Of a stretch of 64,000 nt of DNA, positions 44 to 53,141 are shown in pieces. The notes under the pieces were generated by a model that was given only the letters and a program-made list of their open reading frames with translations, was not told the DNA's origin and did no database searches. The stretch is from Candidatus Pacearchaeota archaeon (GTDB lineage: Archaea; Nanobdellota; Nanobdellia; Pacearchaeales; GW2011-AR1), in the NCBI GenBank assembly GCA_041659265.1, contig JBAZYP010000003.1, forward strand, positions 101,221-165,220, read 5' to 3'. A program made the position numbers and the translations under genes. Every line of letters starts with the position of its first letter. Within the stretch, counting starts at the first letter, position 1.

Positions 44-646
44 ATGACATCAGAAATACCTCAATACGGCTTGAAAGCATATGCGTTATTTTTTGCAAAA
101 CATAAAGATAAAGAAGAATTTAAACAATCAGAATTAGACTGGATAGTTGGGCAAAGCATGAAAAAGAAAATATTTTCTTTATTGTTAAGGGCGGGGTGGA
201 TTAAAAAACAATCTGATAATACCTACATTTGTATTACCCCTGAAAATGTCATGAAAGGTTTATTGGAATTTAAAGTTCCTAAAATTATAAAAGAGGCAGA
301 AAAAGATTATTCTTTCACAAATTTATCTGCAGTAGAAATTTGGAGCGATTATTCGTATGTTCAAAGAGGAATAGAAAAGTCTCCATACTTTATCAAAGTA
401 TTAAAGAAAGATTTAAAATATTGGAAAAGTTTTTTTAATAAATGTAATATTCCAAATTATGTTAATAGCGGAACAACAATAGGAGAATATATTATTTTAA
501 TTCCTGTAGAAAAGTTAAGTTTTGTAGAAAAAGAAGGTTACAAAGTTGAAAGTTTATATGAAACAATAAAGTTAGCTAAATTAAATGAAATGTATTTGTA
601 TGCTTACAATTACATGAAAAAGAAATATAAAAATGTTACAGCTTAG
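44..646 (+). CDS. Hypothetical 200-aa protein. Possible winged-HTH partner of the downstream NTase-fold protein (AbiEi-like antitoxin/regulator).
   Basis: ORF track. It overlaps the next gene by 14 nt, so the two are probably an operon. No catalytic motifs seen, so the wHTH assignment is a guess from the K-rich region LLLRAGWIKKQ. Confidence 0.3.
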   Translation: MTSEIPQYGLKAYALFFAKHKDKEEFKQSELDWIVGQSMKKKIFSLLLRAGWIKKQSDNTYICITPENVMKGLLEFKVPKIIKEAEKDYSFTNLSAVEIWSDYSYVQRGIEKSPYFIKVLKKDLKYWKSFFNKCNIPNYVNSGTTIGEYIILIPVEKLSFVEKEGYKVESLYETIKLAKLNEMYLYAYNYMKKKYKNVTA

Positions 647-1316
647 AGAAAGAGAAATATTTGAAACTTTAAATAGAATGGAAAAATTTAAGTTTGTAAT
701 TATTGGAGGATATGCAGTAAATGCTTACACACTTCCAAGATTTTCAGTTGATTGTGATATTGTAGTTAAAGATACAAAAGAGTTAAAGGAAATTGAAAAT
801 GTCCTATTAAATTTTGGTTATTCAAGAGAGGAAAATAATAAAGATAAAACTTCTTATTATGGAGATTTCTTAAGAATGGAAAAAAATATTGGGAATGGAA
901 TGAATGTAAGTATCGATATCTTAATTAAAGAGATTTTAGATAGGCAAACAAATTCAATTTTTTCTGCAGAATGGATATTTGAAAATTCTGAAATAAAAAC
1001 ATTAAAGGGAAAAACCATAACTGAAGAATTAAAATTAAGGATCATAAACCTCGATGCACTATTTGTTTTAAAATTTGTAAGCCATAGATTAACTGATATT
1101 AGAGATATCTTTATGTTAGCTCCAAATATTAAAAATAAGAAATTAGTCAAGGAAGAAATCTCAAAAAAATATGATTTTAATAAATTGTTTGAAATAATTA
1201 AAGAAAAAATAACCTCAAAACAGTTTAAGGATAGTTTGCAAGGAGTTTATGGAATTTTAGATGATAAGGTTTTTGAGAAACATAAAAAGGCCATTCTAAA
1301 TTTGGATAAAATTTAG
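633..1316 (+). CDS. Nucleotidyltransferase-fold protein (minimal NTase / AbiEii-like toxin family candidate)
   Basis: N-terminal IIGGYAVNAYTLPRFSVDCDIVV fits the Pol-beta superfamily G[GS]...(R/T)xS(x)DxD motif. Overlaps the upstream gene. Confidence 0.45.
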   Translation: MLQLREREIFETLNRMEKFKFVIIGGYAVNAYTLPRFSVDCDIVVKDTKELKEIENVLLNFGYSREENNKDKTSYYGDFLRMEKNIGNGMNVSIDILIKEILDRQTNSIFSAEWIFENSEIKTLKGKTITEELKLRIINLDALFVLKFVSHRLTDIRDIFMLAPNIKNKKLVKEEISKKYDFNKLFEIIKEKITSKQFKDSLQGVYGILDDKVFEKHKKAILNLDKI

Positions 1317-3818: not shown

Positions 3819-3904
3819 CAGGCAACCCTTTCGGATTACCTGGGATTATGTTAATATTATTAATAGTTTATAGTATATAAGATTTTCTATGTTATAAATA
3901 AAAT

Positions 3905-3928
3905 GGACTTAAGAGAGGATCGAACTTA
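3905..3928 (-). other. tRNA 3'-end-like fragment (T-loop TTCGATC + CTCTC + TTAAGTCC). No complementary 5' acceptor strand is found upstream, so it is not a complete tRNA.
   Basis: The reverse complement reads ...AAGTTCGATCCTCTCTTAAGTCC, sharing the T-loop and acceptor 3' strand pattern with the adjacent tRNA-Val. The T-stem 5' strand (ATAAG) cannot pair. Confidence 0.3.
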
Positions 3929-3956
3929 TTCGATCACATTCCTATGAATCCTAGAT

Positions 3957-3977
3957 AGTATTTGCTTTGCAAATACT
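3957..3977. terminator. Perfect 9-bp stem / 3-nt loop hairpin (AGTATTTGC-ttt-GCAAATACT) preceded by oligo-T (minus-strand sense) just 3' of tRNA-Val. Candidate terminator or processing signal.
   Basis: Read directly. On the minus strand the tRNA 3' end is followed by TATATTTT and then the hairpin. Confidence 0.35.
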
Positions 3978-3985
3978 AAAATATA

Positions 3986-4056
3986 TGGACCTAGAGAGGA
4001 TCGAACTCCCGAATTATCGGTGTAAACGATATGGTTTGCCACTAGCCTATAGGTCC
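3986..4056 (-). tRNA. tRNA-Val (anticodon UAC), 71 nt without encoded CCA
   Basis: The reverse complement GGACCTA-TA-GGCT..AACC-TATCG-TTTACAC-CGATA-ATTC-GGGAG-TTCGATC-CTCTC-TAGGTCC-A folds as a cloverleaf. The 7-bp acceptor is perfect and the canonical T-loop is TTCGATC. The anticodon loop TT-TAC-AC gives anticodon TAC. Confidence 0.8.
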
Positions 4057-13565: not shown

Positions 13566-13570
13566 TTTCC

Positions 13571-20094: not shown

Positions 20095-20096
20095 TT

Positions 20097-23211: not shown

Positions 23212-25017
23212 ATGGAAAAGAAATCTCATGATAAAAAACCCGAAGAAACTTTAGATTCTAAAAATTATCAAAATTCTGAGATTAAAGGTCAACCTACTAA
23301 TCAACTTACTCCAGAACAAACAAAAGAAATGGAAAAAGTTAGGGAAAAGTTAGATGAATTGAAAAAATTGATTATTGATAAATACGGAAAATCTGTTGAA
23401 GCAATAGGTATTATTCCTCCTCAAGCTGCTGATGCATTTGATGATGAAAACGAACTTAATGAAGAAGAGCGAAAGAAAAAACCTATGCACTTAGTTGTTG
23501 TTATGGACGATGATAAAGAAAAAGAATATAATGAGATTAGGTCTCATATTGTTAAACAAATAGCAGAATCAAAACAAAATATCTGGTTAAATTTATTATT
23601 GACAAAGGACTTATGGGATTTATGCCAAGATTCAAAATATGCAATTATTGAAGCAATTGGAATGTCTTATCCCTTGCATGATAAAGGAAAATTAGCAGCC
23701 TTAAGAGTTGCTCAGATCCATAAATCTCTTGTATTAAAAAAATTCGAGAAATATGTTTATTCTTATGTTATTGGCGGAAGTCTTGTTAGAGGAGATGCAA
23801 TAAAAACTAGCGATGTAGATACTTATGTTATAATTGATGATACAGATGTAAAAAGAATGCCAAGATTAGAATTAAAGGAAAAATTAAGAAATATTATCTA
23901 TTCATATATAATGCAGGCAGGTGAACTTGCTGGAGTAAAAAATACTCTTAATGTTCAGGTTTATTTACTTACAGAATTCTGGGAAGGGGTTAAAGATGCT
24001 AATCCTATTTTCTATACTTTCTTAAGAGATGGAGTCCCATTATATGATAGAGGCGGATTCTTGCCATGGAAATTATTATTAAAAATGGGTAAGATTAAAC
24101 CATCTCCAGAATCTATTGATATGTTTATGTCAATGGGAGATAAGACTTCTGAAATTGTAAAAAGAAGATTACTTGATATTGTTATTGGTGATATTTATTG
24201 GGGAGTTATTACTCCAAGTCAGGCTATTCTTATGTTATATGGTCTTCCACCAACAACCGTTAAAGAAACAGTTCCAGAAATGAAAAGAATTTTTGTTGAT
24301 AAGGAAAAACTTTTAGAACAAAAATATGTTGATATTTTAGAAGAAATTTTAATAAAATATTACAAAGGATATGAACACCAGAAAATTAAAGAAGTTTCAG
24401 GTAAAGATGTTGATAGACTTCTTAAGAATGCTGAAGATTATTTGAAAAGATTAAAAGAATTAAGGGAAGATTTAGAAAAACAAATGCAGAAGAAAACTTT
24501 TGAAGAAATATACACAAATGTATTTAAGATAATGGGTTCTATTTACGGTGAAAAATCTGAAAGCGAATTAATAAAAACATTTGAAAAAGAAATGGTTAAT
24601 ACCGGAAAAATCCATCCAAAATTCTTGCATACAGTTAATGAACTTCTTTCAATAAAAAAAGATTACAAAAACAAAAAACTTCCAACTAAATATGCTTTTG
24701 AAACATTAAGAAAAGATTCAGTTTATCTAATTGAAAGTTTGGTTGAATATTCTCAAAGAAAAGAATTAGGTCTTTTGGAAAAAACAAAAATAACTTTGAC
24801 ATTTAAAGATAAACATGCTGAATTATTCTTAACTAAACCCTCATTCTTAGTTCATGATAATAAAGTTAAGAAGATAACTGATAAAATTGAAAATTCTGAC
24901 ATGAATGAATTCAATAAAGTTTTAACTGAACATAAAGGTTCCAAAACCAAATTAGATAATCACATGATGAATCTTCTTAGAGCAGAGTTAGGCGAATTCG
25001 ATATTGTAATGGGTTAA
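23212..25017 (+). CDS. 601-aa nucleotidyltransferase-superfamily protein (Pol-beta-like NTase domain plus long helical C-terminal region)
   Basis: YVIGGSLVRGDAIKTSDVDTYVIID matches the GS...S.DxD NTase motif. The remainder is unassigned. Confidence 0.5.
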   Translation: MEKKSHDKKPEETLDSKNYQNSEIKGQPTNQLTPEQTKEMEKVREKLDELKKLIIDKYGKSVEAIGIIPPQAADAFDDENELNEEERKKKPMHLVVVMDDDKEKEYNEIRSHIVKQIAESKQNIWLNLLLTKDLWDLCQDSKYAIIEAIGMSYPLHDKGKLAALRVAQIHKSLVLKKFEKYVYSYVIGGSLVRGDAIKTSDVDTYVIIDDTDVKRMPRLELKEKLRNIIYSYIMQAGELAGVKNTLNVQVYLLTEFWEGVKDANPIFYTFLRDGVPLYDRGGFLPWKLLLKMGKIKPSPESIDMFMSMGDKTSEIVKRRLLDIVIGDIYWGVITPSQAILMLYGLPPTTVKETVPEMKRIFVDKEKLLEQKYVDILEEILIKYYKGYEHQKIKEVSGKDVDRLLKNAEDYLKRLKELREDLEKQMQKKTFEEIYTNVFKIMGSIYGEKSESELIKTFEKEMVNTGKIHPKFLHTVNELLSIKKDYKNKKLPTKYAFETLRKDSVYLIESLVEYSQRKELGLLEKTKITLTFKDKHAELFLTKPSFLVHDNKVKKITDKIENSDMNEFNKVLTEHKGSKTKLDNHMMNLLRAELGEFDIVMG

Positions 25018-25214
25018 TTAAACTAGTCGATTTTATCGACTAAGATTTCATTTGATGAATCTTCTTAAGATGTAGAGTTAGGCGAATTCTAAATTTTAAT
25101 TAAGTTAAACCTAGTAGATTTTATCGACTAAGATTTCATTTGATGAATCTTCTTAAGAGAGAGTTAGGCGAATTCGATATTGTAATTAAGTTAATTAAAC
25201 TAGTCGAATTTTTC
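24964..25214. repeat. Three tandem copies of about 87 bp, the first of which contains the last 18 codons and the stop of the 601-aa gene. Each copy carries the hairpin TAGTCGAT-ttt-ATCGACTA (degenerate in copies 2 and 3).
   Basis: Read directly: GATGAATCTTCTTA(A)GAGNAGAGTTAGGCGAATTC ... TTAATTAAACTAGTCGATTTTATCGACTAAGATTTCATTT repeated at about 24964, 25050 and 25138. Confidence 0.7.
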
Positions 25215-25278
25215 TTTTAAAATATTCATTATTCTCATCAATCTAAATATTTATAATATATTTAATATCAGCTTTTTC

Positions 25279-28547: not shown

Positions 28548-29123
28548 ATGGCTATTGAAACATTAACAATAATTATTCTTGCAATTGCTGCTTTGTTAGG
28601 TGTATTAGTAATCATGTTCATATTCTATTATAATCGATTTACAGTTCTTGAGAATAGAATCGATAACAGTTTAGCGCAGATTGATGTACAATTAAAGAAA
28701 AGAGCAGATTTGATTCCAGCTTTGATTAAGACTGTATCAGGTTATGCAAAGCATGAGAAAAAAATAATGGAAGCAGTTACTCATGCTAGAGCATCAATGT
28801 TAAAGGGCGGAAATCTTGATAAGAGATTAAAAGCAGGCGATGAATTACAATCAGCATTAGGAAGATTATTTGCTATAGCTGAGAACTATCCTAATTTAAA
28901 AGCTAATGAAAATTTCTTGCATATGCAAACAGAATTATCTGCTATTGAAGATAAAGTAGCTTATTCAAGACAATTCTATAATGACTCAGTAATGTCATAT
29001 GAAAACGCAACTGAATTATTCCCTGGTGTATTCTTCTTTAAAATGATGGGCAAATCAAAGAAAGAATACTTGAAGATTTCAGAAGCAGATAAGAATATGC
29101 CTAAGATAGAGTTCGAAGAATAA
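28548..29123 (+). CDS. lemA: LemA-family membrane protein
   Basis: N-terminal TM, then NRFTVLENRIDNSLAQIDVQLKKRADLIPALI ... YPNLKANENFLHMQTEL ... YNDSV, which is typical of LemA. Confidence 0.75.
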   Translation: MAIETLTIIILAIAALLGVLVIMFIFYYNRFTVLENRIDNSLAQIDVQLKKRADLIPALIKTVSGYAKHEKKIMEAVTHARASMLKGGNLDKRLKAGDELQSALGRLFAIAENYPNLKANENFLHMQTELSAIEDKVAYSRQFYNDSVMSYENATELFPGVFFFKMMGKSKKEYLKISEADKNMPKIEFEE

Positions 29124-29266
29124 ATAGTTAGATTTATTTTTATTTTTTTTAGTCCTCAAATTCCCTAAGAATTTGAATGTCCAATATGCCTAAGATAGAG
29201 TTCGAAGAATAAATAGTTAGATTTATTTTTATTTTTTTTAACCCTCAAATTCCCTAAGAATTTGAT
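29097..29266. repeat. Two tandem copies of about 89 bp spanning the lemA stop codon (last 9 codons + stop + 3' flank duplicated)
   Basis: ATGCCTAAGATAGAGTTCGAAGAATAAATAGTTAGATTTATTTTTATTTTTTTTA(G/A)(T/C)CCTCAAATTCCCTAAGAATTTGA occurs at 29097 and again at 29186. Confidence 0.75.
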
Positions 29267-33530: not shown

Positions 33531-36500
33531 TTATTCAGTAAAAATTCTTGTCTTGATAAATTGCCGCATTGCATCAGGATTTCTATATTCTGTGAATGCA
33601 GCAGGAGTGAAGGTATCTTCTACAAATGTTTCAGGGTTTCTTATGACTAAAGAAACTGTACCATCAGATTCTAATCTATAAAGTTCATGATAAATTGGTC
33701 CAGATGGGGTATTTTGTATAGTATAAAACGCAGGATTTCGTTCACTAATTGGTTTTGCAAGTTCTGCAATTACTCTGTCAGTTACATCAAATGCACCAGC
33801 ATTATCAATATTAGTATACTTCTTTACTAATGCCGGATCAAGCATACCAATATATGCTCTCTGGTGCTCAGGTAATGTAACTGAAATCATTTTGGAATAT
33901 TCCTTGCCTGAAACAGGATTTAAAACTGATTCAGACAATATTTCATCAAACATTCCATACATTTCATTTCTTCTTATAATTAAACTTGCATCTTTTGATG
34001 TACCCCATCTTCCAATTTCTCTAAGGTTACCAAAAAAGTCTCCTGTTGGAGAATCAAAAGTGCTCATTGAACCTGCAACTTTTCCATCAATCTGGATATT
34101 ATAAGTTTCAGCACGGCCAACTTTATTCAAAATCTTTTGTTTTGTATAAACTGCATAGGGTCTTAGTTTTTCATTTGCAGCATTAGCATAATCAATAAAA
34201 ACAACTTCTGCATTCTCAACAAGATCTGCTGAAGCAACAACTCGTGATTGTGATATTGGATGTATTGCAGATTGAGAAAATCTTGCAGCAGGTTCTGAGT
34301 TATAATATTTCATCAAGGCACGTCTTGCATCCGGATGTTCTCTTATGAATGCATTTGTCATTTCTTCAGGATTAAATATATCTACAATATCTGCACTATC
34401 AATATCAGATAAAATTTTTGATAATTCCTCACCTTGATAATTATTTAAGACATAATCTTTAAAATCCTCGGTAAGTGCGCTAACATCTGTCAACTTTTTT
34501 GAACCAAACTGCATTCTTCTAGCTCTATCAGTTAAAGTCTTAAGTTCTTTGAAATATACCTTTTCTAATTCACGTTCAACTCCAGTGTCATCAATTAGGT
34601 TACGTAGAGCTGTTGTTCCATCAGGATTCTTTACTCTTACTTTAATATCAGGAAAAGTTATTGTTCCACCATTTGCAGCTGGTTCGAATTTAAGATTAGA
34701 GAAATCAGCATGATTCCTTAAAATATTCTCAGCTCTTGTTGGATATTTTCTTTTTAATCCAGAATTAATCTTTACAATATCTGCTTCTTCAATAATTATT
34801 GTTCCTGATTTTCTTACTTGGAGTGATGGATTATTAAAAAAACCAGTACCTGTTGGTGTTTCTAATAAGTTCTTTAATTGATTTGTTGCTGCAAACGGAT
34901 CTTCCATGTTCCTTATAACTTTCATAGCATCATATTGTTTATAGAAAATATCTGCCTCAGCCTTTGTAAGCTTGGATAGACTTCTGTACATTTTTTCAGC
35001 ATGAGTCCTTTCAACAAGATCAATTATTTCCTCTGCAACATCAACAGCTGAACTTTCAATTTCTGCAGCTGTAGCTGTAGATTTGCCTCTAAAAATCCTC
35101 CATCTTGATGTTCCGTCAGGAGCAGGAGTTGTTTTTAAAACAAGAATAACTTCATCTGCAACCTTGCTTTCTAATACTCCAACCCTGGTAAGGATATTTG
35201 TTCCTACTCTTTTTATAATCCTCAATGTAAAAGGAAGAGCTTTAGAAAGTACAGCTCCTGTAGCAATATTAAAAAGACCTTCTCCAACATCTGTAAGGAC
35301 AGCATCAGTCATACTATCATATTCTTCAGGGTTTAATTTGTATCTTATTGCATTTACTCCACCTGTAAAATAAAATGGCAGTTCCAACATTGTTTGCATC
35401 AATGCAGCATTTCCATTATAACCATTTGCCATTTCAATATAATCAGAACCAACAGTTTCATCAGATACTGAAACAATTTGACTGTCATGAACATACCAAC
35501 CAACTATCACGAGATGATATGCACCATGACCACCTTCATAGACTTTATCTTTTTTTGCTTTAAAAGAAGTCTTAACCTTAAGATTCTCATGGATATAAAC
35601 ATCTTCTGGTGTTGTTCTTTTTCCTGCTGCAACCTGAAGGTCTTTAAAAAAACTAAAGCACATAGAGAAAATAGTCTTAGGGTCAGCTACCCCATAATCA
35701 TTTACAATAGGATAACTTATCTGTACTTTTCTTACAATTTTTAATTTCTCTAATGCTTTCATCTCTGCATCTGAGATAAGATTGTAGTTCCTGATATATT
35801 CAAATTTCTGTTCCTTGGTAATATCAGTTCTTAATGCAGTTTTCGATGAAAGATCAATCGCTTTCATTAATTTTGCCCATGCATCTTTTGGATGAATATT
35901 ATAATCCACAAATCTTCCTTGCATATTTTGTGCATTTACTTTTATTATAGGTAACCTAGAAAAATAATAATCTGCAATTTCTTGATATGTTGCACCATCA
36001 GGACCATAATTAAAACTTCTCGGTTTATCATCAAACTCTTTATAGACCGAGTAATAGTTTATCGGGCAAACCTCCGGATCAGTTATAACTTTTCCTGTAA
36101 ATCCAACATCGTATAAATAACCAGTGCCACATGAAAATTCCAGACTAGGATTTAGTTTAAGATCTGTTATGCATAAAGCTTTTTCACTATTGCAAGTCGG
36201 ACATTTGAGTGTTAACATTTTTTTTGAAAAATAACCATTAAATATCTCACGAAAGTAACCATTAGGATTATTTGATAGGGATTTTGTTGTAATAGTATTA
36301 TCAGAATTAGTTAATAATAGAGAACAAGAGCCAGCTGACTTTGTTGCTCCACGCAAGACAAAAATATTATATTCATTATAAGGTAGGAAGAAGACATCTT
36401 TTTCACTTGTAGTGGGACTAACTAAAAACTCAATATTTGTCCATGTTAGTTCAGGTGTAATATTGCATGTACCAGTTTGGCAAGAATTTATACGAGGACT

Positions 36501-39500
36501 TTTAAGGAGCTTTATTTCTGTTGACTTGCTTGTAAAAGTTGTGCATAATTGGTTTGTTTTTAGATAATCATTGATAAGAGTAAAGATTTCAGCTCCAGCA
36601 GATGTTTGAGTACCGTTAATAGCTGTATATGTTAAGCTGTTGCAATCATTATAAAAATCCAATCTTGGCTGATAACTTGAATTTGTCTCATTAGTAGTAT
36701 ATTTAATTATGACTGAAATAGAACTTGAATACAATGATAAATTATTCAATAAAGGAATTATTCTGTTGCAAAGTGTACAATCACTTGGATTGTCTGTTGT
36801 GAAGATAATATTTCCACAAGACTGTGGAACTGAATAAATATAATTAACATTAAATGTACTTGTTGTTTCTATAGAGGGCATTACTGATGTAAAATTCATG
36901 TACCTAGTTTCATTAGGTTTTAGAGTAACATTATAGTCTCCAATAATGAATGAACCCGTAGGAGGATGGATATGATATGTTAAGTTTATATCAAGATAAT
37001 TGAACAATTCAATTGACCCATTGAATAATTTACCTACTTCAAAATTTCTTGCATAAATCCATTGAACACTAGTCCCATTAGAGCCATTTTTCCACATGTT
37101 TCTGACATAACTTTCTCCTTTGTTGCAATATTGATTGCATCCACATTGAGAGTTCGAAGTGCACGAATCATTGATTATCTTGCATGAGGATCTTGTTGAT
37201 TCACTTCCATTACAACATCCGATTTTTCCAGATATTGAGCAATTATTAAAAATTGGTACTTTTAAACAAGTTCCATTGAAACTTTCTTTTGGTTCAGCTT
37301 TAAAGACAAAATTATATGTATCAGATATATCTGAACTAATACTACATTCAAGAGGATTATTATTTATATAATTATTTACACATGATTCAAATCCAACAGT
37401 ACCAGAGCAGACTTTTCTATTATCTCTATTTAATGCAACCGGATAGTTTGATAAGCCATATCTTGTTTCAAATCTTGTTTTACAATATTTCTGTATATAT
37501 CCATTATAACTAGAGGTTGCAAAGTCAAAAATATTAAAAGATCTAAAAGGTAGGGGATATATGTTCTGCATTATTTTTATGATATGATTAATTGTTTTTT
37601 GTCTTGTTAAACAAACACTTTCAGCTTTTGAATCATATAATATTTTTATGCAATTCATTCCACCAGGTACTGAGAGATCTAATTTATTTATACCTTTTTG
37701 AGGTATTGATTTTTTAATCTCAAAAACAAAACTATAATCTAAAAAATTAGTAGCATAATTAAAATTAATTATTTTATTCTGTTTAGCTAAAATTGTTCCT
37801 TTAATGGGTTCATTAATAAAATTTGAAGCTTCTACTCCAATTAAAATCTGACTAGTATCATAATAAACACTTTTTAAGATTACTTCATACTTTATTGGCA
37901 CATCAAAAGGATTTGATATGACTATAGGTTCTGTAATAAGTTTTCCAGGTTTAATGTTCAAATATACAAAATCATTACCTTTTTTTATGATTTTTTCACT
38001 ATTATAATACTTGCAATATTCACAACTTGAACAGGCTTGATTATTTTGAGAACAAGTTTTTCCAATGACTTTTGTACAAATTCCAGATGAACATTTTCCA
38101 GATTTTATTACTCCTTTTCCATTATAAGGATCTTTTTCATAAAATGTACATGACTTTCCATTTTTAGTCGAGTCAGCAATACAACCTGCATTTGGATTAT
38201 TAATATCGCATGTTTCACATTCAGAACAAACTTTAGAAATTCTATCAGCTCTTAAATATGCCCAATCAAAAATACCTGAATATGAATCTCTTAGGACAAG
38301 ATCAGGAAGAAAGGAGTATTCAACAATTATATCTCTGTTGGAAATAACTCCAAGACTATCCTGTTTATAACATTTTTTTGGGGGATTAGCGGGTGGAGAA
38401 CATTTATTTCCTGATTGAGAACAAACATAGGATGTTGTATATTGATCTGTTCTAGAATGTACAGTAACTTTATACCATCCAGAAGTATTGAAAATTTTGC
38501 ATGTATTGCTTGCAGTGCAAGGTATTTCAGTTCTTTCATAATTATATATTGGAGGGTAAGAGATATCACATCTATAGGTTTTTGTTTCAGTCTGAGTACA
38601 TTTTTTTGGTACAGGGCAGATTGGATTAGGAGTATTACAAGTACTAATATTAGAACAATAAGCCATACCCCAACATTGATGAATGCACGCCCCATTAGAG
38701 CATTGCTGACAATTATTTTTTTGTTTACATTGATCTATTATAGAACTAGTTAATGATGTTTGATTATAATAACATGATTCGCAAAGGTTTGGATTAGGAC
38801 TTTCACTTAAAGATTGACCATTAAAACAAAATGAACAGCTGCCATTAATAGCAGGCATAGTTGATGAACAATTTCCATTAGAACATGTTTGACAAGCTGT
38901 ATAATTGCATTTTGATTTGCATGCACCACCATTGCATGTCTGACATCCAGTGCAGGTTGAAGTGCAATTCTTTTTTGAAGAATCATATTGTAAACAATTA
39001 CTTTCACTGCAAGTAGAACACTGAGTGCCATTCCAAGGAAGTCCTTTCTTGCAATCAAATGAACAATTTCCAGGATCATCAACAATAGCAAAACCAGTTA
39101 TTGCATCAGCGGTTATAGTTGGTTTTTCTTTTCCAAGAAATAATCCTTTAATGAATTTATTAAAGCCTACTAACCTTTCTCCAAAAGATTTTTCATTAGG
39201 TTCTTTTTGTGTTATTATTACTTCTGGTTTAATTTCTTCATTTTCTTCTACGGGTTTTAATGAACTTAATGTACCTAAATTATCTATTTCATATTCACAT
39301 TGACATTCATCTTTTATTGAACTTACAAGAGTCCAGGTTCCACATCTTCCTCCGCATCCATCTTCACTGCATGAATATATATTATTTGAACAATGAGGGA
39401 CACAGGTTCCATCGCATACTCCATTAGTACATGTTTGACCTACTTGACAAGTTCCACATGTTCCAGAACATCCATCTGATCCACAAGTCTTTCCAGCACA

Positions 39501-40937
39501 ATTTGGAATGCAACTTCCAACACATTGTCCATTAGTGCATGTTTGACCTACTTGACAAGTTCCACATGTTCCTCCACATCCATTATCTCCACAAGTCTTT
39601 CCAGCACAATTTGGAATGCAACTTCCAACACATTGTCCATTAGTACATGTTTGACCTACTTGACAAGTTCCACATGTTCCTCCGCATTCATTATCTCCGC
39701 AAGTCTTTCCAAAACAATTAGGTAAACATGATGGCCCACAAACTCCATTATTGCAAAAATTACCAATCATACAAGTCCCACAGCTTCCTGAACATCCATC
39801 AGATCCACAATTTTTTCCAGCACAATTAGGTAGACAACTTTGATAACATAAACCTGATTTACATTCATAATTAGTTGGACATGTTCCGCATGTTCCTCCA
39901 CATCCATTATCTCCACAATATTTTCCAGAACAACTAGGAATACATGATGGATTAGAACATTGATAATTAGAATTACAAACTAATGGAGAAGTGCATGTTC
40001 CACAAAATCCAGAACAACCATCTGGACCACATTGTTTATTGGTGCACGATGGAGTGCAGGTAGTTATACAGTTGCCATTTGAACAGGTTTGACCAATTGG
40101 ACATATTCCACAAGTTAGATAAGATCCACATCCATCAGACCATGAGCCACAAGATTTTCCAAGTATAGGACATGTTGTTGGAGTGCATGGATTAATTGGA
40201 GGAAGAATTGGATTAGTGATTGGTGTTGTAGGGTTTGTTGGATATGAAGGAGGAGTTAATATTGGAAGAGTAAAAATATAATTATAATCAGAAGTTATAT
40301 CACTTGCAGATATTGCAGAATTATATACTCTAACTTCATCTATAGCACCTTTAAATGGATACCATAAACTACTTCTTCCATCACCAAAAGAAAATTTATA
40401 TGTTGAATAATAAGTTACAGTTCCAGGAGCATTTAATGTATTATCTAAAACTCCATCAATATAAATCTTCATAGATGTTCCATCATAAGTAAAGACTAGA
40501 TTATACCAAGTGTTATCAAGAAGTTTTTTTATTGAATAGACTGATTTTTGGGTTCCAGCAATATTCATTGAAAATATTATCCTTCCATCAGACATGAAAC
40601 CAAAATAAGGTAAATGCTGACCCATAAACATATTATATGTATTCAGTGAAGAATATCTTTTAACCCATAAAGAATAAGTCATCTGATTACCTTTTCCTGT
40701 AAGTAAATCTTTTGTTTCTAATCTGGATAAACCATCAAATGACAAGGCTTTTCCATTCTTGCCTTCAATAAAAGTTGTTGTACCAACAACTGTAGCAGGA
40801 TTTGTTGGATTATAAAAATCAATTATGCTATCATCAAATTTATAATGAATTATAGGACTAACAGCGCTAATATTTAAAATATTAGCTAATATTATCCCTA
40901 ATAAGATTACGAATATCCACACTCTTTTACTTGTCAT
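33531..40937 (-). CDS. Giant 2468-aa secreted/surface protein: signal peptide, LamG/concanavalin-A-like jelly-roll domain, Pro/Thr linker, about 8 tandem 36-aa Cys-rich repeats, a long Cys- and N-x-S/T-rich region, and a roughly 1100-aa Cys-poor C-terminal region
   Basis: N-terminal MTSKRVWIFVILLGIILANILNISA. LamG-like WYNLVFTYDGTSMKIYIDGVL. Repeats CxPNCAGKTCGxDGCxGTCGTCQVGQTCTNGQCVGS. Single uninterrupted ORF. Confidence 0.8.
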   Translation of the reverse strand: MTSKRVWIFVILLGIILANILNISAVSPIIHYKFDDSIIDFYNPTNPATVVGTTTFIEGKNGKALSFDGLSRLETKDLLTGKGNQMTYSLWVKRYSSLNTYNMFMGQHLPYFGFMSDGRIIFSMNIAGTQKSVYSIKKLLDNTWYNLVFTYDGTSMKIYIDGVLDNTLNAPGTVTYYSTYKFSFGDGRSSLWYPFKGAIDEVRVYNSAISASDITSDYNYIFTLPILTPPSYPTNPTTPITNPILPPINPCTPTTCPILGKSCGSWSDGCGSYLTCGICPIGQTCSNGNCITTCTPSCTNKQCGPDGCSGFCGTCTSPLVCNSNYQCSNPSCIPSCSGKYCGDNGCGGTCGTCPTNYECKSGLCYQSCLPNCAGKNCGSDGCSGSCGTCMIGNFCNNGVCGPSCLPNCFGKTCGDNECGGTCGTCQVGQTCTNGQCVGSCIPNCAGKTCGDNGCGGTCGTCQVGQTCTNGQCVGSCIPNCAGKTCGSDGCSGTCGTCQVGQTCTNGVCDGTCVPHCSNNIYSCSEDGCGGRCGTWTLVSSIKDECQCEYEIDNLGTLSSLKPVEENEEIKPEVIITQKEPNEKSFGERLVGFNKFIKGLFLGKEKPTITADAITGFAIVDDPGNCSFDCKKGLPWNGTQCSTCSESNCLQYDSSKKNCTSTCTGCQTCNGGACKSKCNYTACQTCSNGNCSSTMPAINGSCSFCFNGQSLSESPNPNLCESCYYNQTSLTSSIIDQCKQKNNCQQCSNGACIHQCWGMAYCSNISTCNTPNPICPVPKKCTQTETKTYRCDISYPPIYNYERTEIPCTASNTCKIFNTSGWYKVTVHSRTDQYTTSYVCSQSGNKCSPPANPPKKCYKQDSLGVISNRDIIVEYSFLPDLVLRDSYSGIFDWAYLRADRISKVCSECETCDINNPNAGCIADSTKNGKSCTFYEKDPYNGKGVIKSGKCSSGICTKVIGKTCSQNNQACSSCEYCKYYNSEKIIKKGNDFVYLNIKPGKLITEPIVISNPFDVPIKYEVILKSVYYDTSQILIGVEASNFINEPIKGTILAKQNKIINFNYATNFLDYSFVFEIKKSIPQKGINKLDLSVPGGMNCIKILYDSKAESVCLTRQKTINHIIKIMQNIYPLPFRSFNIFDFATSSYNGYIQKYCKTRFETRYGLSNYPVALNRDNRKVCSGTVGFESCVNNYINNNPLECSISSDISDTYNFVFKAEPKESFNGTCLKVPIFNNCSISGKIGCCNGSESTRSSCKIINDSCTSNSQCGCNQYCNKGESYVRNMWKNGSNGTSVQWIYARNFEVGKLFNGSIELFNYLDINLTYHIHPPTGSFIIGDYNVTLKPNETRYMNFTSVMPSIETTSTFNVNYIYSVPQSCGNIIFTTDNPSDCTLCNRIIPLLNNLSLYSSSISVIIKYTTNETNSSYQPRLDFYNDCNSLTYTAINGTQTSAGAEIFTLINDYLKTNQLCTTFTSKSTEIKLLKSPRINSCQTGTCNITPELTWTNIEFLVSPTTSEKDVFFLPYNEYNIFVLRGATKSAGSCSLLLTNSDNTITTKSLSNNPNGYFREIFNGYFSKKMLTLKCPTCNSEKALCITDLKLNPSLEFSCGTGYLYDVGFTGKVITDPEVCPINYYSVYKEFDDKPRSFNYGPDGATYQEIADYYFSRLPIIKVNAQNMQGRFVDYNIHPKDAWAKLMKAIDLSSKTALRTDITKEQKFEYIRNYNLISDAEMKALEKLKIVRKVQISYPIVNDYGVADPKTIFSMCFSFFKDLQVAAGKRTTPEDVYIHENLKVKTSFKAKKDKVYEGGHGAYHLVIVGWYVHDSQIVSVSDETVGSDYIEMANGYNGNAALMQTMLELPFYFTGGVNAIRYKLNPEEYDSMTDAVLTDVGEGLFNIATGAVLSKALPFTLRIIKRVGTNILTRVGVLESKVADEVILVLKTTPAPDGTSRWRIFRGKSTATAAEIESSAVDVAEEIIDLVERTHAEKMYRSLSKLTKAEADIFYKQYDAMKVIRNMEDPFAATNQLKNLLETPTGTGFFNNPSLQVRKSGTIIIEEADIVKINSGLKRKYPTRAENILRNHADFSNLKFEPAANGGTITFPDIKVRVKNPDGTTALRNLIDDTGVERELEKVYFKELKTLTDRARRMQFGSKKLTDVSALTEDFKDYVLNNYQGEELSKILSDIDSADIVDIFNPEEMTNAFIREHPDARRALMKYYNSEPAARFSQSAIHPISQSRVVASADLVENAEVVFIDYANAANEKLRPYAVYTKQKILNKVGRAETYNIQIDGKVAGSMSTFDSPTGDFFGNLREIGRWGTSKDASLIIRRNEMYGMFDEILSESVLNPVSGKEYSKMISVTLPEHQRAYIGMLDPALVKKYTNIDNAGAFDVTDRVIAELAKPISERNPAFYTIQNTPSGPIYHELYRLESDGTVSLVIRNPETFVEDTFTPAAFTEYRNPDAMRQFIKTRIFTE
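39422..39745. repeat. Three near-identical 108-bp tandem DNA repeats inside the giant gene, each encoding one 36-aa Cys-rich module
   Basis: Read directly: CATTAGT(R)CATGTTTGACCTACTTGACAAGTTCCACATGTTCC ... CACAAGTCTTTCCAGCACAATTTGGAATGCAACTTCCAACACATTGTC repeated at 39422, 39530 and 39638. Confidence 0.8.
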
Positions 40938-44739: not shown

Positions 44740-45021
44740 TTAATTATATTTTTTATTGATCTGCTCTATTCTCTTTTTAATTATATAATAAGTTATTAAG
44801 AATATTATAAGAAAAATTGAAAAAACAAAAATCATTGATAGGGATTGATTATCAAACATATTTTTTAAATAGGGATTTGTTTCAGCAAAATCTACTAATA
44901 TTACTCCAACAAAACCAACAGGAATGCACGAACCAACAAAAACTAATGGTCCTACAATAAATATTGTCAATAAAATTAATATCATTCTTGTTACAGGCCT
45001 CTTAATTTTTTCTTCATCCAT
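44740..45021 (-). CDS. Small two-TM protein, paralog 1 of a six-member tandem family (lipobox-like VGSC motif, C-terminal KKYN)
   Basis: MDEEKIKRPVTRMILILLTIFIVGPLVFVGSCIPVG ... KKYN. Confidence 0.5.
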   Translation of the reverse strand: MDEEKIKRPVTRMILILLTIFIVGPLVFVGSCIPVGFVGVILVDFAETNPYLKNMFDNQSLSMIFVFSIFLIIFLITYYIIKKRIEQINKKYN

Positions 45022-45490: not shown

Positions 45491-45923
45491 TTTTTAAATC
45501 TTTAATAAATTTATATATAAAAAATAATGCTAGAAAACAAAATAGGAAAAATGACAGATATCCAGTTATCTCTTCTCTTGATTCTTTTGGAAATATTGAA
45601 GAATAGGTAAAAAAAGGAATTAATACTAATAACATATATCCTATAAAAAAATAAATAATATAATTATTAAAGAACTTTTTAATTATATATTTGGATTTTG
45701 TTGGATCCTGTTTATAGAATTTTAATATTTTTAAAATCAAAAATGCAGATATTAAGCCACAAAATAATGAAAGAAAAGGTAAAATTAAATCATAATTATT
45801 AAAATACGTGCTAGAGATTCCTAGGGGTAAGCAAGAACCTAAAAATATTAAAGGACCAATTAAAAATAAAATTAAGATAACAAATAAAACTTTTGATATT
45901 TTAGATTTTTTTCCTTCATCCAT
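45483..45923 (-). CDS. Paralog 3, with a C-terminal extension
   Basis: MDEGKKSKISKVLFVILILFLIGPLIFLGSCLPLG. Confidence 0.45.
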   Translation of the reverse strand: MDEGKKSKISKVLFVILILFLIGPLIFLGSCLPLGISSTYFNNYDLILPFLSLFCGLISAFLILKILKFYKQDPTKSKYIIKKFFNNYIIYFFIGYMLLVLIPFFTYSSIFPKESREEITGYLSFFLFCFLALFFIYKFIKDLKNG

Positions 45924-46164
45924 ATTTTTTATTAATTAACTTAATCAAATAAAAAACAACTAATATTCCTAAACCTAATCCAACTATCCATGACCCATAA
46001 AAGATTATCATTCCAAAGAATTCAGAACTTCCGCCTTCAGATAAAGTAAAACCAAATAAACCTAAAGGAAAACATGCCCCAACAAAAACTAATGGTCCTA
46101 CAATAAATATTGTCATTAATATTAAAATTATCTTCAATCCCGAACTTTTTTTATTCTTAACCAT
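45916..46164 (-). CDS. Paralog 4
   Basis: MVKNKKSSGLKIILILMTIFIVGPLVFVGACFPLG ... INKKYG. Confidence 0.5.
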   Translation of the reverse strand: MVKNKKSSGLKIILILMTIFIVGPLVFVGACFPLGLFGFTLSEGGSSEFFGMIIFYGSWIVGLGLGILVVFYLIKLINKKYG

Positions 46165-46624
46165 ATTTTCTAATAATTTTATTTATTATAATATAAGCTA
46201 TAGATAATATAACTATAACTCCAAAAGATCCGATAATTAGGGTTGGTGAGGAAATAATCCTAAAAATATCTTGAAAAGATATAACTTCTCTAAGTAAATA
46301 AAAAAAGATTATTAATAAAACCAATAATAATAAACCAAAAATTATTTTTATATGAAGATCAATTTTACCAACTTCATAATATTTTTTTATAGCTTTAATT
46401 GTTTTTATTACAACGTATATAGCTAAACCTAATCCAATTATCCATGATGCAAAAAATAATCCAATCCATAAATTTGCTATAGTTCCTCCTCTTTCATAAG
46501 AATTCATAAAACCAAGCATACCTACAGGAAAACATGCTCCAAAAAAAACAAGTGGCCCTACAATAAAAATTGCAAGGAATATGAGAACAATTCTACTGGT
46601 TGGAATTTTTTCACTTTTACCCAT
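46157..46624 (-). CDS. Paralog 5, with a C-terminal extension
   Basis: MGKSEKIPTSRIVLIFLAIFIVGPLVFFGACFPVG ... IIRKYG. Confidence 0.5.
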   Translation of the reverse strand: MGKSEKIPTSRIVLIFLAIFIVGPLVFFGACFPVGMLGFMNSYERGGTIANLWIGLFFASWIIGLGLAIYVVIKTIKAIKKYYEVGKIDLHIKIIFGLLLLVLLIIFFYLLREVISFQDIFRIISSPTLIIGSFGVIVILSIAYIIINKIIRKYG

Positions 46625-46697
46625 AAATACTAATATGCATTTGAGCTTATAAATATTGTTTATTTTATAATCTTAATAATTTTCTTTTTATTTTCTA

Positions 46698-46937
46698 TTA
46701 ACTAGTTTCATTAGAATTTTTATTAATTAAATAGAATAAACCAATAATGATTAAAGCAGTTATTAATATGGCTATCAGGACAGCTATTGAGAGATTTTCC
46801 GGGAATTGAACTCCTCCGTCCGAATATAAACTTAATCCAAATAAAACCGGAATACAAGATCCAACAAATACAATAGGTGCAATTATGAATAATACTAAAA
46901 TCATCAAAATTAGTTCTTTTAATTTTTTATTCATCAT
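46698..46937 (-). CDS. Paralog 6
   Basis: MMNKKLKELILMILVLFIIAPIVFVGSCIPV. Confidence 0.45.
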   Translation of the reverse strand: MMNKKLKELILMILVLFIIAPIVFVGSCIPVLFGLSLYSDGGVQFPENLSIAVLIAILITALIIIGLFYLINKNSNETS

Positions 46938-49150: not shown

Positions 49151-50131
49151 ATGTCAGATCACAAAGTTAGTATATTAGCAAATCCTGAAGGAAATGCATG
49201 GGAATATGCAGAAGAGATTTTTAATTACTTAAATAAAAAAGATGATTGCTATGAATTAAATAGGGTGATAATTGAGTCTTTTAGAAATGGAGAAATTAAG
49301 CCCAAGATTGAAGATAATATTAGGGATAGAAAATGTTTCTTTATTCACGATTCAACACTTGATCCTAACAAATGGTTAGCTCAATTATCTCTAATTAACG
49401 AGACAATGCATAATTCTTCATCTTATAATATCACAGATATATTACCTATGTATTTATTTGCAAGACAAGATAGGAAAGATGATTCAAGGGTTCCAAAAAG
49501 TGCAAAAGTTGTTGCAGATATTGCACAAAAATATGGAAATAGATTAATGACATTAGATATTCACTGTCCACAGATAGAACTGGCATTTGATACACCTTTT
49601 GAAAACTTGCCTTCTTATCCAGTGGTATCTTCTTATTTAAAAAAGAATCACCCAAAAATACTCGATGATCTTGTAATTATGAGTCCAGATGAAGGCGGTG
49701 TGAAAAGAGCAGTTGCATTTGGAAAATATTTGCAAAATAATGAACTTGTTGTTGCATATAAAATTAAAGATAAAAATGGAAAAATTATAGATTTAAGGAT
49801 TTTAGGGGATGTTAAAGATAGAAAAGTAATGATGATTGATGATATCGTAGATTCAGGTAATACTTTAATTACAGCTGCAAGAAGAGCAAGAGATCTAGGA
49901 GCAAGTGAAGTTTATGCCTATGCAACTCACGGGTTATTTACTGAAGGTTCAGATAAAGTTACAAGAGAATTTGATAAATTTTTTGTAGGAGACACATTTA
50001 AACAAAAACAAGGAATTAACGCAGAAATTATCAAATTACCCTTATTCATTGGTGAGGCTATATACAGAAATATTACTGGTTTAAGTTTAAGCGAGATGTT
50101 CAGATACGATTTTGTTTTTGATGCAGTTTAA
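49151..50131 (+). CDS. prs: Ribose-phosphate pyrophosphokinase (PRPP synthetase)
   Basis: PRPP-binding loop KVMMIDDIVDSGNTLITAA. Overall Prs length and layout. Confidence 0.8.
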   Translation: MSDHKVSILANPEGNAWEYAEEIFNYLNKKDDCYELNRVIIESFRNGEIKPKIEDNIRDRKCFFIHDSTLDPNKWLAQLSLINETMHNSSSYNITDILPMYLFARQDRKDDSRVPKSAKVVADIAQKYGNRLMTLDIHCPQIELAFDTPFENLPSYPVVSSYLKKNHPKILDDLVIMSPDEGGVKRAVAFGKYLQNNELVVAYKIKDKNGKIIDLRILGDVKDRKVMMIDDIVDSGNTLITAARRARDLGASEVYAYATHGLFTEGSDKVTREFDKFFVGDTFKQKQGINAEIIKLPLFIGEAIYRNITGLSLSEMFRYDFVFDAV

Positions 50132-50217
50132 TCAATGCAGAATTGATAGATTCTGCAGGTCTGTTACTGGTTTAAGTTTAAGCGAGATGTTCAGATACGA
50201 TTTTGTTTTTGATGCAG
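50074..50217. repeat. Two identical 53-bp copies (last 19 codons of prs) separated by a 38-bp spacer containing an 8-bp inverted repeat; period 91 bp
   Basis: TACTGGTTTAAGTTTAAGCGAGATGTTCAGATACGATTTTGTTTTTGATGCAG at 50074 and 50165. The spacer holds TGCAGAAT-tgatag-ATTCTGCA. Confidence 0.75.
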
Positions 50218-50259
50218 ATTAAGAATAAATCAAAAAGGACATTATTTCAAAAATCAATT

Positions 50260-50592
50260 CTATCCTTTGATAATATTACAAATTTTATCTTCTACTTCTT
50301 TAATTTTATTTTTATTAATTTTTCCAGCCTTGTATAGGATTATTGATTCTCTAAGTGTAAATAAGATTGAAGGTTTTATATGACTATTAATTTTTAATCC
50401 GCCATTTGAAAAGTCATTATCTGTTAAATCTATCTGATAAGGATCAGGATGATATTTTGAAGTAATTTGACAAAGAATAATATCTTCTCCTTTTAAATTT
50501 GCAACAACAAGAGCAGGTCTTTTTATTGAAGATTTTAAGTCTGAAAAAGGGAATGGTGTTACAACGACATCACCTTTTACAAATTTTTCCAT
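50260..50592 (-). CDS. mazF: MazF/PemK-family toxin, second copy
   Basis: GDVVVTPFPFSDLKSSIKRPALVVA. Confidence 0.7.
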   Translation of the reverse strand: MEKFVKGDVVVTPFPFSDLKSSIKRPALVVANLKGEDIILCQITSKYHPDPYQIDLTDNDFSNGGLKINSHIKPSILFTLRESIILYKAGKINKNKIKEVEDKICNIIKG

Positions 50593-50786
50593 GCGATTTC
50601 ATCCTCTTTACTTAACCAATTTTTGGAAAGAAGATCTTCATCAGCATAAATATTGGATTTTATGCTTTCAAGTTCTTCAATTCTTTTTTGCACACATCTT
50701 CGGACAAACTCACTCCATTTAATTTCAGAATATTTTCGCATTTTTTTATAAACTTCATCATCAATTGATAATGTAATATTAGTCAT
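50577..50786 (-). CDS. Antitoxin, ribbon-helix-helix-like
   Basis: MTNITLSIDDEVYKKMRKY. Overlaps the toxin start by 16 nt. Confidence 0.45.
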   Translation of the reverse strand: MTNITLSIDDEVYKKMRKYSEIKWSEFVRRCVQKRIEELESIKSNIYADEDLLSKNWLSKEDEIAWKNL

Positions 50787-50793
50787 TCTTTAT

Positions 50794-50809
50794 TAAGTGA
50801 GCTCACTTA
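50794..50809. promoter_or_regulatory. Perfect 16-bp palindrome TAAGTGAGCTCACTTA 8 nt upstream of the antitoxin start. Candidate operator.
   Basis: Read directly. Confidence 0.45.
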
Positions 50810-50921
50810 TTTAAATCTTACGAATAAAAATATTAAGTTAATTTAAAAGATCAATATTTTTTTTATCATTATAAATAATATTATCCCAAACCTTTTTTAA
50901 TACTGCAAAATATATATTATA

Positions 50922-52062: not shown

Positions 52063-52446
52063 ATGTTACAAAAAAACTACACTGCTTCTGAAACGCATTA
52101 TTTATGCGATGAATGTAGTGAGGCAATTACTAATCCATTATGTCCTTATTGTCTTACTGAAGAAGTTGAAGCTTGGTTAACTCTTTATCCTAATCTAAAG
52201 CATGAGATAAAGCCGCATATAGATAGGTATCTTCACCGTGGATTCATGAATTTCTCGACAATATGTATCAAATGTAGAAATCCTTCTGCATTCCTGTGTC
52301 CATATTGTTTCACAAATCATGTATTAATATCATTAAAGAAAATTAATGCAAGTAAGTTAATATTAAAAGAATTCTTTGATTTCTTTAATTTTGATTTTGA
52401 TCATACCGGTTATACTCATGAAGCAGAGAGGTTAGGAGTAATTTGA
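52063..52446 (+). CDS. Cys-rich zinc-finger protein, 127 aa
   Basis: CDECSE ... CPYCLTEE ... CIKCRN ... CPYCFTNH. Confidence 0.4.
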   Translation: MLQKNYTASETHYLCDECSEAITNPLCPYCLTEEVEAWLTLYPNLKHEIKPHIDRYLHRGFMNFSTICIKCRNPSAFLCPYCFTNHVLISLKKINASKLILKEFFDFFNFDFDHTGYTHEAERLGVI

Positions 52447-52598
52447 TGACAATCAGTTTAAAGTTAAATCCACTAACTCAAATATCTTCGATATTTGATC
52501 TAGTTAAGAGGTTAGGAGTAATATGATAATGTTAAATAAAATTTCAAATTCATCTTCTCAAAAATCAAAAAGATTTTTGATATGTAAGGAGGGAAATC

Positions 52599-52808
52599 AT
52601 GATAGGTAAATGTCCTAGTTGTGGAATTAGTTTAATTACACCACCATTTAATGGAAGAAATACTAATGAAGTTCTTCTGACTTTAGCATATCGTAGAATA
52701 GTTGAAACAAATACTATTCTTAGATCTATTGATGAACTTGGTTATTGTGAATTATGTGATGCTAAATTGAAAGATTTAGAAGAACAAGGTTTAACACTTC
52801 ATATTTAA
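52599..52808 (+). CDS. Small zinc-ribbon protein, 69 aa
   Basis: CPSCG ... CELCD. Confidence 0.35.
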   Translation: MIGKCPSCGISLITPPFNGRNTNEVLLTLAYRRIVETNTILRSIDELGYCELCDAKLKDLEEQGLTLHI

Positions 52809-52829
52809 CATTTTAGTGCTGTAAAACAC

Positions 52830-52879
52830 GTCCAGCTTAGCTATAGCTTTACATCCCAGTTAGTTTAGCTAAGCTGGAC
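52830..52879. repeat. 13-bp perfect inverted repeat (GTCCAGCTTAGCT ... AGCTAAGCTGGAC) with a 24-nt loop, directly after the 52599..52808 gene
   Basis: Read directly. The GCTGGAC core recurs at 52935. Confidence 0.5.
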
Positions 52880-52911
52880 AATTATATTTAACAGTTGTTA
52901 AGTATGTACTT

Positions 52912-53027
52912 CCTAATCAGAATGATTAATCTTCTTAGCTGGACTAGTATATTCATTTAGGTATTTGGAATTAGAGGTCCTAATCACTTTAGTGATTAAT
53001 TTCAAGCGGGTCTAGTATATTCATTTT
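52912..53027. repeat. Two direct repeats of about 47 bp (period 67 bp), each with an internal 6-7 bp palindrome (TAATCA..TGATTA) and ending CTAGTATATTCATTT, in the intergenic region upstream of the GH77 gene
   Basis: Read directly: CCTAATCAGAATGATTAATCTTCTTAGCTGGACTAGTATATTCATTT and CCTAATCACTTTAGTGATTAATTTCAAGCGGGTCTAGTATATTCATTT. Confidence 0.5.
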
Positions 53028-53141
53028 TTATTTAGAATTAACTCTAATCCAGGATGTATTAAGTTCAATTCTAGACCAGGTGATTTTTTATAATCAAAAT
53101 ATATACTAAATATTTATAAGTAGTTTCTAGATATTGAAATT

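Follow-up and report, generated by a model that had tools for sequence, protein, structure and literature searches.

A hairpin-bearing duplication of the prs gene tail in a Pacearchaeota archaeon as a possible scar of replication template switching

In the genome of a Candidatus Pacearchaeota archaeon, the 3′ end of prs, the gene for ribose-phosphate pyrophosphokinase, recurs a short way downstream of the gene, and the two copies enclose a spacer that carries a perfect palindrome. This tail-hairpin-tail structure is most likely no gene, regulatory device, mobile element or new genetic system. Rather, it is best read as the non-functional scar of a local replication error, namely template switching, which was later homogenised by gene conversion, and a probability of roughly 0.55 can be attached to this reading. 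The structure lies in a stretch of 64,000 nucleotides of contig JBAZYP010000003.1 (the window), which holds similar events at five other loci; an initial annotation of the same sequence, which had treated the prs repeat as one of a series, was correct in this respect.

The prs gene and its duplicated tail

The prs gene occupies positions 49151..50131 of the + strand and encodes a protein of 326 aa that matches the Pfam families PF13793, PF14572 and PF00156. Its best named relatives come from Woese-, Pace- and Nanoarchaeota, and its C-terminal extension, YDFVFDAV, is absent from more distant homologues (54-58% identity), which end ...SLSELF[RKD]. Among species-representative genomes, a search for close relatives yielded a single Flavobacteriaceae prs of 32% identity. 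Looking up the exact protein gave no match, and a metagenome scan recovered one contig, which ends at prs residue 52.

A repeat search located the last 59 nt of the gene, TAA stop codon included, at 50073..50131 (copy 1, or T1; + strand, encoding (I)TGLSLSEMFRYDFVFDAV*) and again at 50164..50222 (copy 2, or T2; + strand, non-coding), with 98% identity and a start-to-start distance of 91 nt. The period of 91 bp and the position across the 3′ end of prs, given in the initial annotation, are thus both upheld, copy 1 being the end of ORF 49151..50131. The sole mismatch is a T/A difference, GTT TAA in copy 1 and GAT TAA in copy 2, the latter copy ending exactly at the stop codon. The exactly repeated block measures 54 nt (50073-50126 = 50164-50217), a length that cannot be put down to chance. 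The 53-bp copies with a 38-bp spacer described previously were therefore off by one, and their stated identity of 100% applies to this block; counted through the stop codon, the copies extend over 59 nt, differ at one site and are separated by 32 nt.

The spacer itself (50132..50163, + strand; TCAATGCAGAATTGATAGATTCTGCAGGTCTG) contains the 8-bp inverted repeat already recognised in the initial annotation, which proves to be a perfect palindrome, TGCAGAAT-tgatag-ATTCTGCA, at 50136..50157 (no strand assigned). This palindrome is situated 4 nt past the stop codon of copy 1 and 6 nt ahead of copy 2, and as DNA it folds with -7.1 kcal/mol (z = -3.4). The spacer agrees with the 32 nt upstream at 13/32 positions and with the ancestral downstream sequence, as found in a related contig discussed below (L006), at only 4/29. 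Because it is homologous to neither flank, the prs repeat is no plain tandem duplication, as it had been called. No microhomology is evident at the junctions, which read aata/TTAC and tctg/TTAC. The start of the spacer, ATGCAGAATTGA, is a near copy of the tail end, which is ATGCAGATTGA in L006 and immediately precedes it there. The left arm of the palindrome, TGCAGAAT, belongs to this near copy, and the right arm, ATTCTGCA, is an inverted copy of the left, so that the spacer looks templated from its surroundings. No significant second copy of it was detected in the window or in viral contigs, and matches to the palindrome pattern with three mismatches are weak and located within coding regions.

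The hairpin stem has a G+C content of 3/8 and is followed by GGTCTGTTAC, with no T-run, and so lacks the form of an intrinsic terminator. Across the whole window Rfam matched only the tRNA-Val, and nothing above chance was returned for 49950-50350. A long-range RNA structure spanning both copies and the spacer was considered (z = -2.7) and set aside, as the fold rests on low-complexity, self-complementary UUUAAG repeats.

Copy 2 lies in the intergenic region ahead of a convergent mazF gene, as first annotated. This gene (mazF/PemK, 50260-50592, PF02452) forms, with an RHH antitoxin gene (50577-50786), a mazEF module on the - strand at 50223..50880. The module, ~650 bp in length, is present in the window and absent from L006 (1765-1790), and the indel begins exactly after the stop codon of copy 2, which marks the site right after copy 2 as unstable. 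A second MazE/MazF pair is found in the window at 22520-23078.

From the end of copy 1 through the spacer and copy 2, an ENA MEGAHIT contig (L003) and a Logan contig (L004), which come from other data sets, are identical to the window. Given these junctions in two other assemblies, together with a diverged version of the structure in L006, which derives from a JGI metagenome of another sample, the prs repeat is no assembly artefact.

Age of the duplication

The prs gene of L006 shares 97% amino acid, 88.3% DNA and 75.8% third-codon-position identity with that of the window. It is called as two overlapping ORFs (722-1676; 74 + 272 aa), a split that stems from a frameshift or else from an error of sequencing, near the 5′ third of prs. 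Its 3′ end has the same tail-hairpin-tail architecture, with the same repeat start and with each copy ending at a stop codon. Copy 1 ends GAT TGA, while copy 2 has the same first base and closes with a TAA of its own, the period being 88 nt. The stems of the palindrome are unchanged relative to the window, and the loop has a G to T change. The GAT TAA ending of copy 2 in the window corresponds to the tail encoded by copy 1 of L006 (DAD*). Following copy 2, L006 continues with a T-rich stretch, TTTTTCTTATTT, which is plausibly the native downstream sequence.

The two tail copies of L006 differ at 10/59 sites, and eight changes in the 59 nt of its copy 2 are private to that copy (13.6%). In a four-way comparison, the two copies of the window share, at five sites, a base found in neither copy of L006, and no site groups the copies by position. 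As the same structure occurs in L006 with diverged copies, the duplication predates the split of the two lineages, and the sequence comparison places its age at no less than ~12% DNA divergence (~24% at third codon positions). What is recent in the window lineage is a gene conversion from copy 1 to copy 2, or else a re-duplication at the same spot. The previous argument from 100% identity to a recent event thus holds for this later step and fails for the duplication itself; the near-identity of nearby repeats is a poor clock, gene conversion having reset the prs copies. Moreover, the 13.6% change in copy 2 of L006 is close to the per-lineage neutral divergence implied by the 24% at third positions, which supports the reading of the structure as a neutral scar.

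Related loci in the window

Local direct repeats of at least 16 nt, with a spacing of 20-250 and outside coding repeats, were counted across the 64-kb window. Only four exist, at ORF 23212..25017, the LemA gene (28548..29123), prs and ORF 52063..52446, and all four span the stop codon of a + strand gene. Two weaker loci, one at the tRNA-Val gene and one in a non-coding region, were added later.

The first of these sister loci (24965..25229, + strand) consists of three 88-nt units across the 3′ end of ORF 23212..25017, with a palindrome, TAGTCGAT-ttt-ATCGACTA, located 10 nt ahead of the next unit; the copies are frameshifted and contain early stops. At the second (29094..29265, + strand), two 83-nt copies (98% identical; period 89) extend across the LemA stop codon, are joined by the 6-nt filler ATGTCC and are each closed by the palindrome TCAAATTC-cctaa-GAATTTGA. 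An independent JGI contig (L011) spans this locus fully and identically.

The third sister locus (52427..52588, + strand) is a diverged 80-nt tandem duplication comprising the tail of ORF 52063..52446 and the first ~60 nt of the next small gene, with the palindromes TCAAATATC-ttc-GATATTTGA and TCAAAAATC-aaaaa-GATTTTTGA. Here an outgroup contig (L010), probably from the same lineage as L006, retains a single copy: a 127-aa gene ends ...GGAGTAATATAG, a 69-aa gene starts two bases on, and the palindrome TCAAAAATC-aaaaa-GATTTTTGA is contained within this intact gene. The window has therefore duplicated 80 nt of contiguous ancestral sequence, ending a few bases past a palindrome that already existed. 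Since that palindrome was part of a coding sequence beforehand, the palindromes are sites where such events end and not the cargo of an element. The upstream unit has diverged, and its palindrome was kept perfect through a paired (compensatory) A/T change. The small gene downstream (52529-52609) encodes 26 aa in the window and 69 aa in L010 (561-770), ~129 nt having been deleted between two TTTTTGAT repeats, and is probably decaying. A microhomology, AGAGG/AGGAGG, is present at this locus, the meaning of which depends on the order of the duplication and the ~129-nt deletion, and it is accordingly given no weight here.

At the fourth sister locus (3904..4008, - strand), the last ~23 nt of tRNA-Val appear again 81-82 nt downstream, with an alignment score of 35 against 14 +/- 2 for shuffles, and the repeat is also found in contig L015. 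An 8-bp palindrome, TAGTATTT-gcaaagc-AAATACTA (3956-3978), lies between the copies, and the start of the second copy contributes to a fold-back, GATCGAA-taag-TTCGATC. The fifth (52938..53026, + strand) is a 21-nt repeat, GC(T/G)GG(A/T)CTAGTATATTCATTT, of period 68 in a structured non-coding region, with the palindrome TAATCACT-tt-AGTGATTA 7 nt ahead of copy 2. The surrounding ~330-nt gene-free stretch (52805-53045) is of higher G+C and has a 12-bp stem, GTCCAGCTTAGC...GCTAAGCTGGAC, an RNA fold z of -4.0 and no Rfam match; its start is conserved in L010, its 3′ part bears the period-68 repeat, and it may be an unannotated RNA gene.

Together with prs, the six loci (three further protein genes, tRNA-Val and one non-coding region) have periods of 68, 80, 81-82, 88, 89 and 91 nt, and all are situated at the 3′ ends of transcription units. 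A perfect palindrome of 8-9 bp is found at 6/6 loci and ends 6-10 nt before the next copy at all of them except tRNA-Val. The palindromes and the duplicated sequences are different at every locus, and so no element is shared among them. Whatever the division between copy and spacer, five of the six periods fall within 80-91 nt, and neither TRF nor a sliding-identity scan detected any period of 31-67 nt in the window; the upper edge of this size range is possibly sharpened artificially, since longer duplications of near-identical units may go unseen in short-read assemblies. The + strand carries five of the six loci (Fisher p = 0.03). GC skew in the window tracks the coding strand only and thus gives no replication direction.

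No such duplications occur in 39 kb of two other Pacearchaeota loci (L007 and L012) or in the 6.8 kb upstream of the window, an absence that is suggestive of lineage-specific scars without being significant. Hairpins of the prs kind also follow the stop codons of non-duplicated genes. After the stop codon of ORF 633..1316, a 10-bp palindrome, AAAGTATATC-tttttt-GATATACTTT, is followed ~36 nt later by a second GATATACTTT (1317-1390), and this may be a small event of the same kind as the six loci.

Origin by template switching

A short series of copying steps could account for the prs structure. The nascent strand would have reached the end of prs and re-copied its last ~12 nt in a stutter, then folded back and copied 8 nt of its own sequence, yielding the palindrome. 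Next it would have paired anew with the template at a point ~60 nt upstream and replicated the gene tail once more before continuing into native downstream sequence, thereby leaving the order T1-spacer-T2-native flank. Later, T1 and T2 would have exchanged sequence by gene conversion in the window lineage. At the palindromes, a hairpin in the nascent or flap strand may be what dislodges the primer terminus.

Several observations are in keeping with these steps. In L006, copy 2 ends at its stop codon and is followed by the T-rich TTTTTCTTATTT, which supports re-alignment and a subsequent return to the native flank. That the palindrome ends 6-10 nt before the next copy, at all loci but tRNA-Val, fits a hairpin that dislodges the primer terminus. 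The ORF and its stop codon remain intact within the T1-spacer-T2 arrangement, and the duplication was accordingly tolerated. No reverse transcriptase, integrase, transposase, Cas1 or HUH nuclease was identified among the 49 of the window's ~72 ORFs that were scanned.

The closest known counterparts are the alternative duplications described in FEN1/Rad27-deficient yeast in work of 2021, in which two units enclose an internal sequence; this sequence arises when 3′ flaps left unprocessed in the maturation of Okazaki fragments form a hairpin or pair with a nearby site and then extend themselves (as summarised in PMC13202174). At prs, direct copies likewise flank an internal sequence absent from either flank, and this sequence bears an inverted repeat, so that the structure fits the class (PMC13202174). 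The scars may also be linked to lagging-strand or Okazaki-flap processing. The known events are also short-range and replication-associated; however, they belong to mutants or stressed eukaryotic cells, whereas the present cases are old scars fixed in a wild DPANN archaeon with no known flap-nuclease defect. The present cases are also concentrated at the 3′ ends of transcription units and have periods of 68-91 nt.

A second parallel comes from rad27-delta mutation-accumulation lines of yeast, where insertions combining a palindrome with a duplication arise via two template switches, and from Saccharomyces genomes, in which quasi-palindromes have repeatedly been perfected in evolution (PMC5677150). 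As in the archaeal window, the yeast insertions create or extend a palindrome and directly duplicate adjacent sequence, and orthologous yeast palindromes stay perfect despite sequence change, as does that of the third sister locus (PMC5677150). The yeast events mostly involve a few to tens of bases, in contrast to the duplicated parts of 20-83 nt and the nearly constant insert size here (PMC5677150).

Simple slipped-strand duplications resemble the present ones in being short, head-to-tail and tolerated where the ORF is unbroken. Such direct-repeat-mediated tandem duplication, in which slippage converts ABA to ABABA, was reportedly described by Tishkoff et al. in 1997. The prs junctions differ in having no microhomology and a 32-nt unrelated spacer (6 nt at LemA), and the first and third sister loci come closer to the slippage pattern.

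Certain features sit less comfortably with template switching. The inverted repeat can be derived from the nascent sequence, but the loop and the 6 nt after the palindrome (GGTCTG) match no nearby template and are not explained. The order of switches given above is a reconstruction from two genomes with no prs outgroup. Simple slippage does not predict the clustering of the periods, and the strand bias calls for an extra assumption, for example a single replication direction; both are unexplained. Neutrality, which we infer from the rate of change in L006, may also be incomplete: some selection is conceivable, as neither lineage has acquired a frameshift or an internal stop in copy 2, and the stems are unchanged.

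Alternative explanations

The alternative with the strongest claim, although an unlikely one, is a plain 91-nt tandem duplication of the tail together with a native hairpin flank. The resulting T-S-T-S order would then have lost its second spacer, and this loss could have accompanied the rearrangements that moved mazEF in or out of the unstable site after copy 2. Such a history, which would still leave a neutral scar of the same class, draws on the first three sister loci, which are full-unit duplications with a palindrome in each unit and have periods like those of prs (91; 88 in L006), and on the similar hairpins that follow the stop codons of non-duplicated genes. It nevertheless requires that precisely the second spacer was lost in a further event before the lineages split, and no remnant of that spacer is seen after copy 2 in L006 (4/29 matches). 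The stutter-like resemblance of the spacer start to the tail end is also left unaccounted for.

An improbable alternative is that the hairpin and the second tail were selected as a functional 3′-end device, such as a terminator or RNA-stability element, or for a +1-frame peptide; the candidate ORF, MQFNQCRIDRFCRSVTGLSLSEMFRYDFVFDAD*, starts at 50121 and would carry the prs C-terminal tail. The structure has indeed survived ~12% DNA divergence despite the risk of deletion between its 59-nt direct repeats, and no stem position of the hairpin differs between the window and L006. With 0/16 changes in stem positions and 3/13 elsewhere, however, the difference is not significant. The frame of copy 2 is open through the spacer in both genomes (91 and 88 are both 3n+1), and copy 2 of L006 retains this frame and its stop codon. 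Against this, the same copy evolves at an approximately neutral rate with 5/8 codon changes non-synonymous, the ATG at 50121 has no Shine-Dalgarno motif ahead of it while neighbouring genes have one, and the ORF is not conserved at the sister loci, where the copies of the first are frameshifted and periods of 80 and 89 nt lead into other frames. A terminator is disfavoured by the lack of a T-run after the hairpin. The compensatory A/T swap that keeps a palindrome perfect at the third sister locus would suit a selected structure, but template switching that perfects quasi-palindromes accounts for such changes with no need of selection (PMC5677150).

A footprint of site-specific recombination is largely refuted and deserves very little credence. 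In this case the prs tail would be an att site duplicated by an element since reduced to 32 nt, or one for which mazEF was the cargo. Duplicated 3′ ends of tRNA and protein genes are the classic mark of integrative elements, the tRNA-Val locus here is of like appearance, and at prs, as at att sites, the gene end is repeated downstream while the gene stays intact; mazEF, moreover, directly follows copy 2 and is missing from L006. Yet only 32 nt separate the repeats, with no element, integrase or cargo between them, mazEF lies outside the pair and is followed by no third copy, and in L006 the site is filled in the same way with mazEF missing. The 49 ORFs scanned include no integrase or transposase, and each of the six loci would need to have lost an element down to a period of 68-91 nt. 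At the third sister locus the duplication arose from contiguous ancestral sequence (L010) with no foreign DNA. Other mobile or repeat systems fit no better: the spacer recurs nowhere else in the window and is not seen in viral contigs, and duplicated lengths of 20-83 nt across the loci do not suit a MITE or IS. A CRISPR-like array is similarly at odds with a repeat of 59 nt here and 20-83 nt at the sister loci, and neither Cas1 nor Cas2 was detected among the scanned ORFs (49/~72).

DPANN archaea carry diversity-generating retroelements (DGRs), and the layout of prs, with a repeat at the gene 3′ end, a hairpin and a second repeat, recalls that of a variable repeat, hairpin and template repeat. 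The single mismatch in the window also has A in the downstream copy. As judged from the substitutions in L006, of which only ~4/10 have A in the downstream copy, a DGR-like pair is nonetheless refuted, and its probability is minute: no reverse transcriptase was found among the scanned ORFs of the window, the repeat is short, the target would be the tail of a housekeeping enzyme, and one sister locus is a tRNA and another is non-coding. Finally, an assembly or amplification artefact is refuted: contigs of other assemblies do break inside the prs repeat, which marks the region as hard to assemble, but the unique spacer is joined to both copies in three assemblies, another sample holds a diverged orthologous version and a JGI contig spans the LemA locus whole.

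Four further candidates were rejected. A C/D-box sRNA was suggested by a TGATGA motif at the first sister locus, which has neither a D box nor Rfam support. An integron attC site was dropped for want of a GTTRRRY core at the junctions. Hairpin ends of the IS200/IS605 type were dismissed on the grounds that no two hairpins are alike and that the window has no Y1 transposase among its scanned ORFs. A programmed +1 frameshift into copy 2 would need a slippery site, which the sequence (GTT TAA / GAT TGA) does not offer, and the frames at the sister loci are different.

Other features of the window

Three further regions of the window were recorded. On the - strand, 11715-21300 holds ~ten co-directional genes (up to 698 aa) with almost no Pfam matches, the exceptions being a methyltransferase and a weak metallopeptidase match. 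Also on the - strand, 44740-46937 encodes six tandem paralogous small membrane proteins (79-158 aa) with the motif IFIVGPLVF(V/L)G(S/A)C. Within ORF 33531..40937, which encodes a 2468-aa protein of the secreted type, four to five Cys-rich coding repeats of 108 nt are located at 39390-39930.

Implications

For prs itself the consequences are slight, since the duplication leaves the ORF whole and the added copy is most likely inert. The wider consequence concerns annotation. Repeated gene tails are usually read as traces of integrated elements, and here they can arise without one; the tRNA-Val repeat, which would normally be taken for the remnant of an att site, has the same anatomy as the duplications at protein genes. 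Annotators of DPANN genomes should thus not call att sites from gene-tail repeats alone.

A more speculative and rather doubtful extension is that the process is lineage-specific and directional, with a 3′-end hairpin triggering an insert of ~80-91 nt and nearly fixed length, irrespective of its make-up (59+32, 83+6, 88, 80 and 23+58). Were this so, an insert of constant length would implicate a physical ruler, for instance Okazaki fragments or flaps of characteristic length in archaea or a ~90-bp histone-wrapped unit, and the strand bias would reveal the direction of replication. For an organism that cannot be cultured, the scars would then be a natural record of how long its lagging-strand fragments are and which way its forks travel. 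That the events recur at palindromes, within a narrow size range and with a strand bias, suggests a specific weakness of replication in this lineage of Pacearchaeota.
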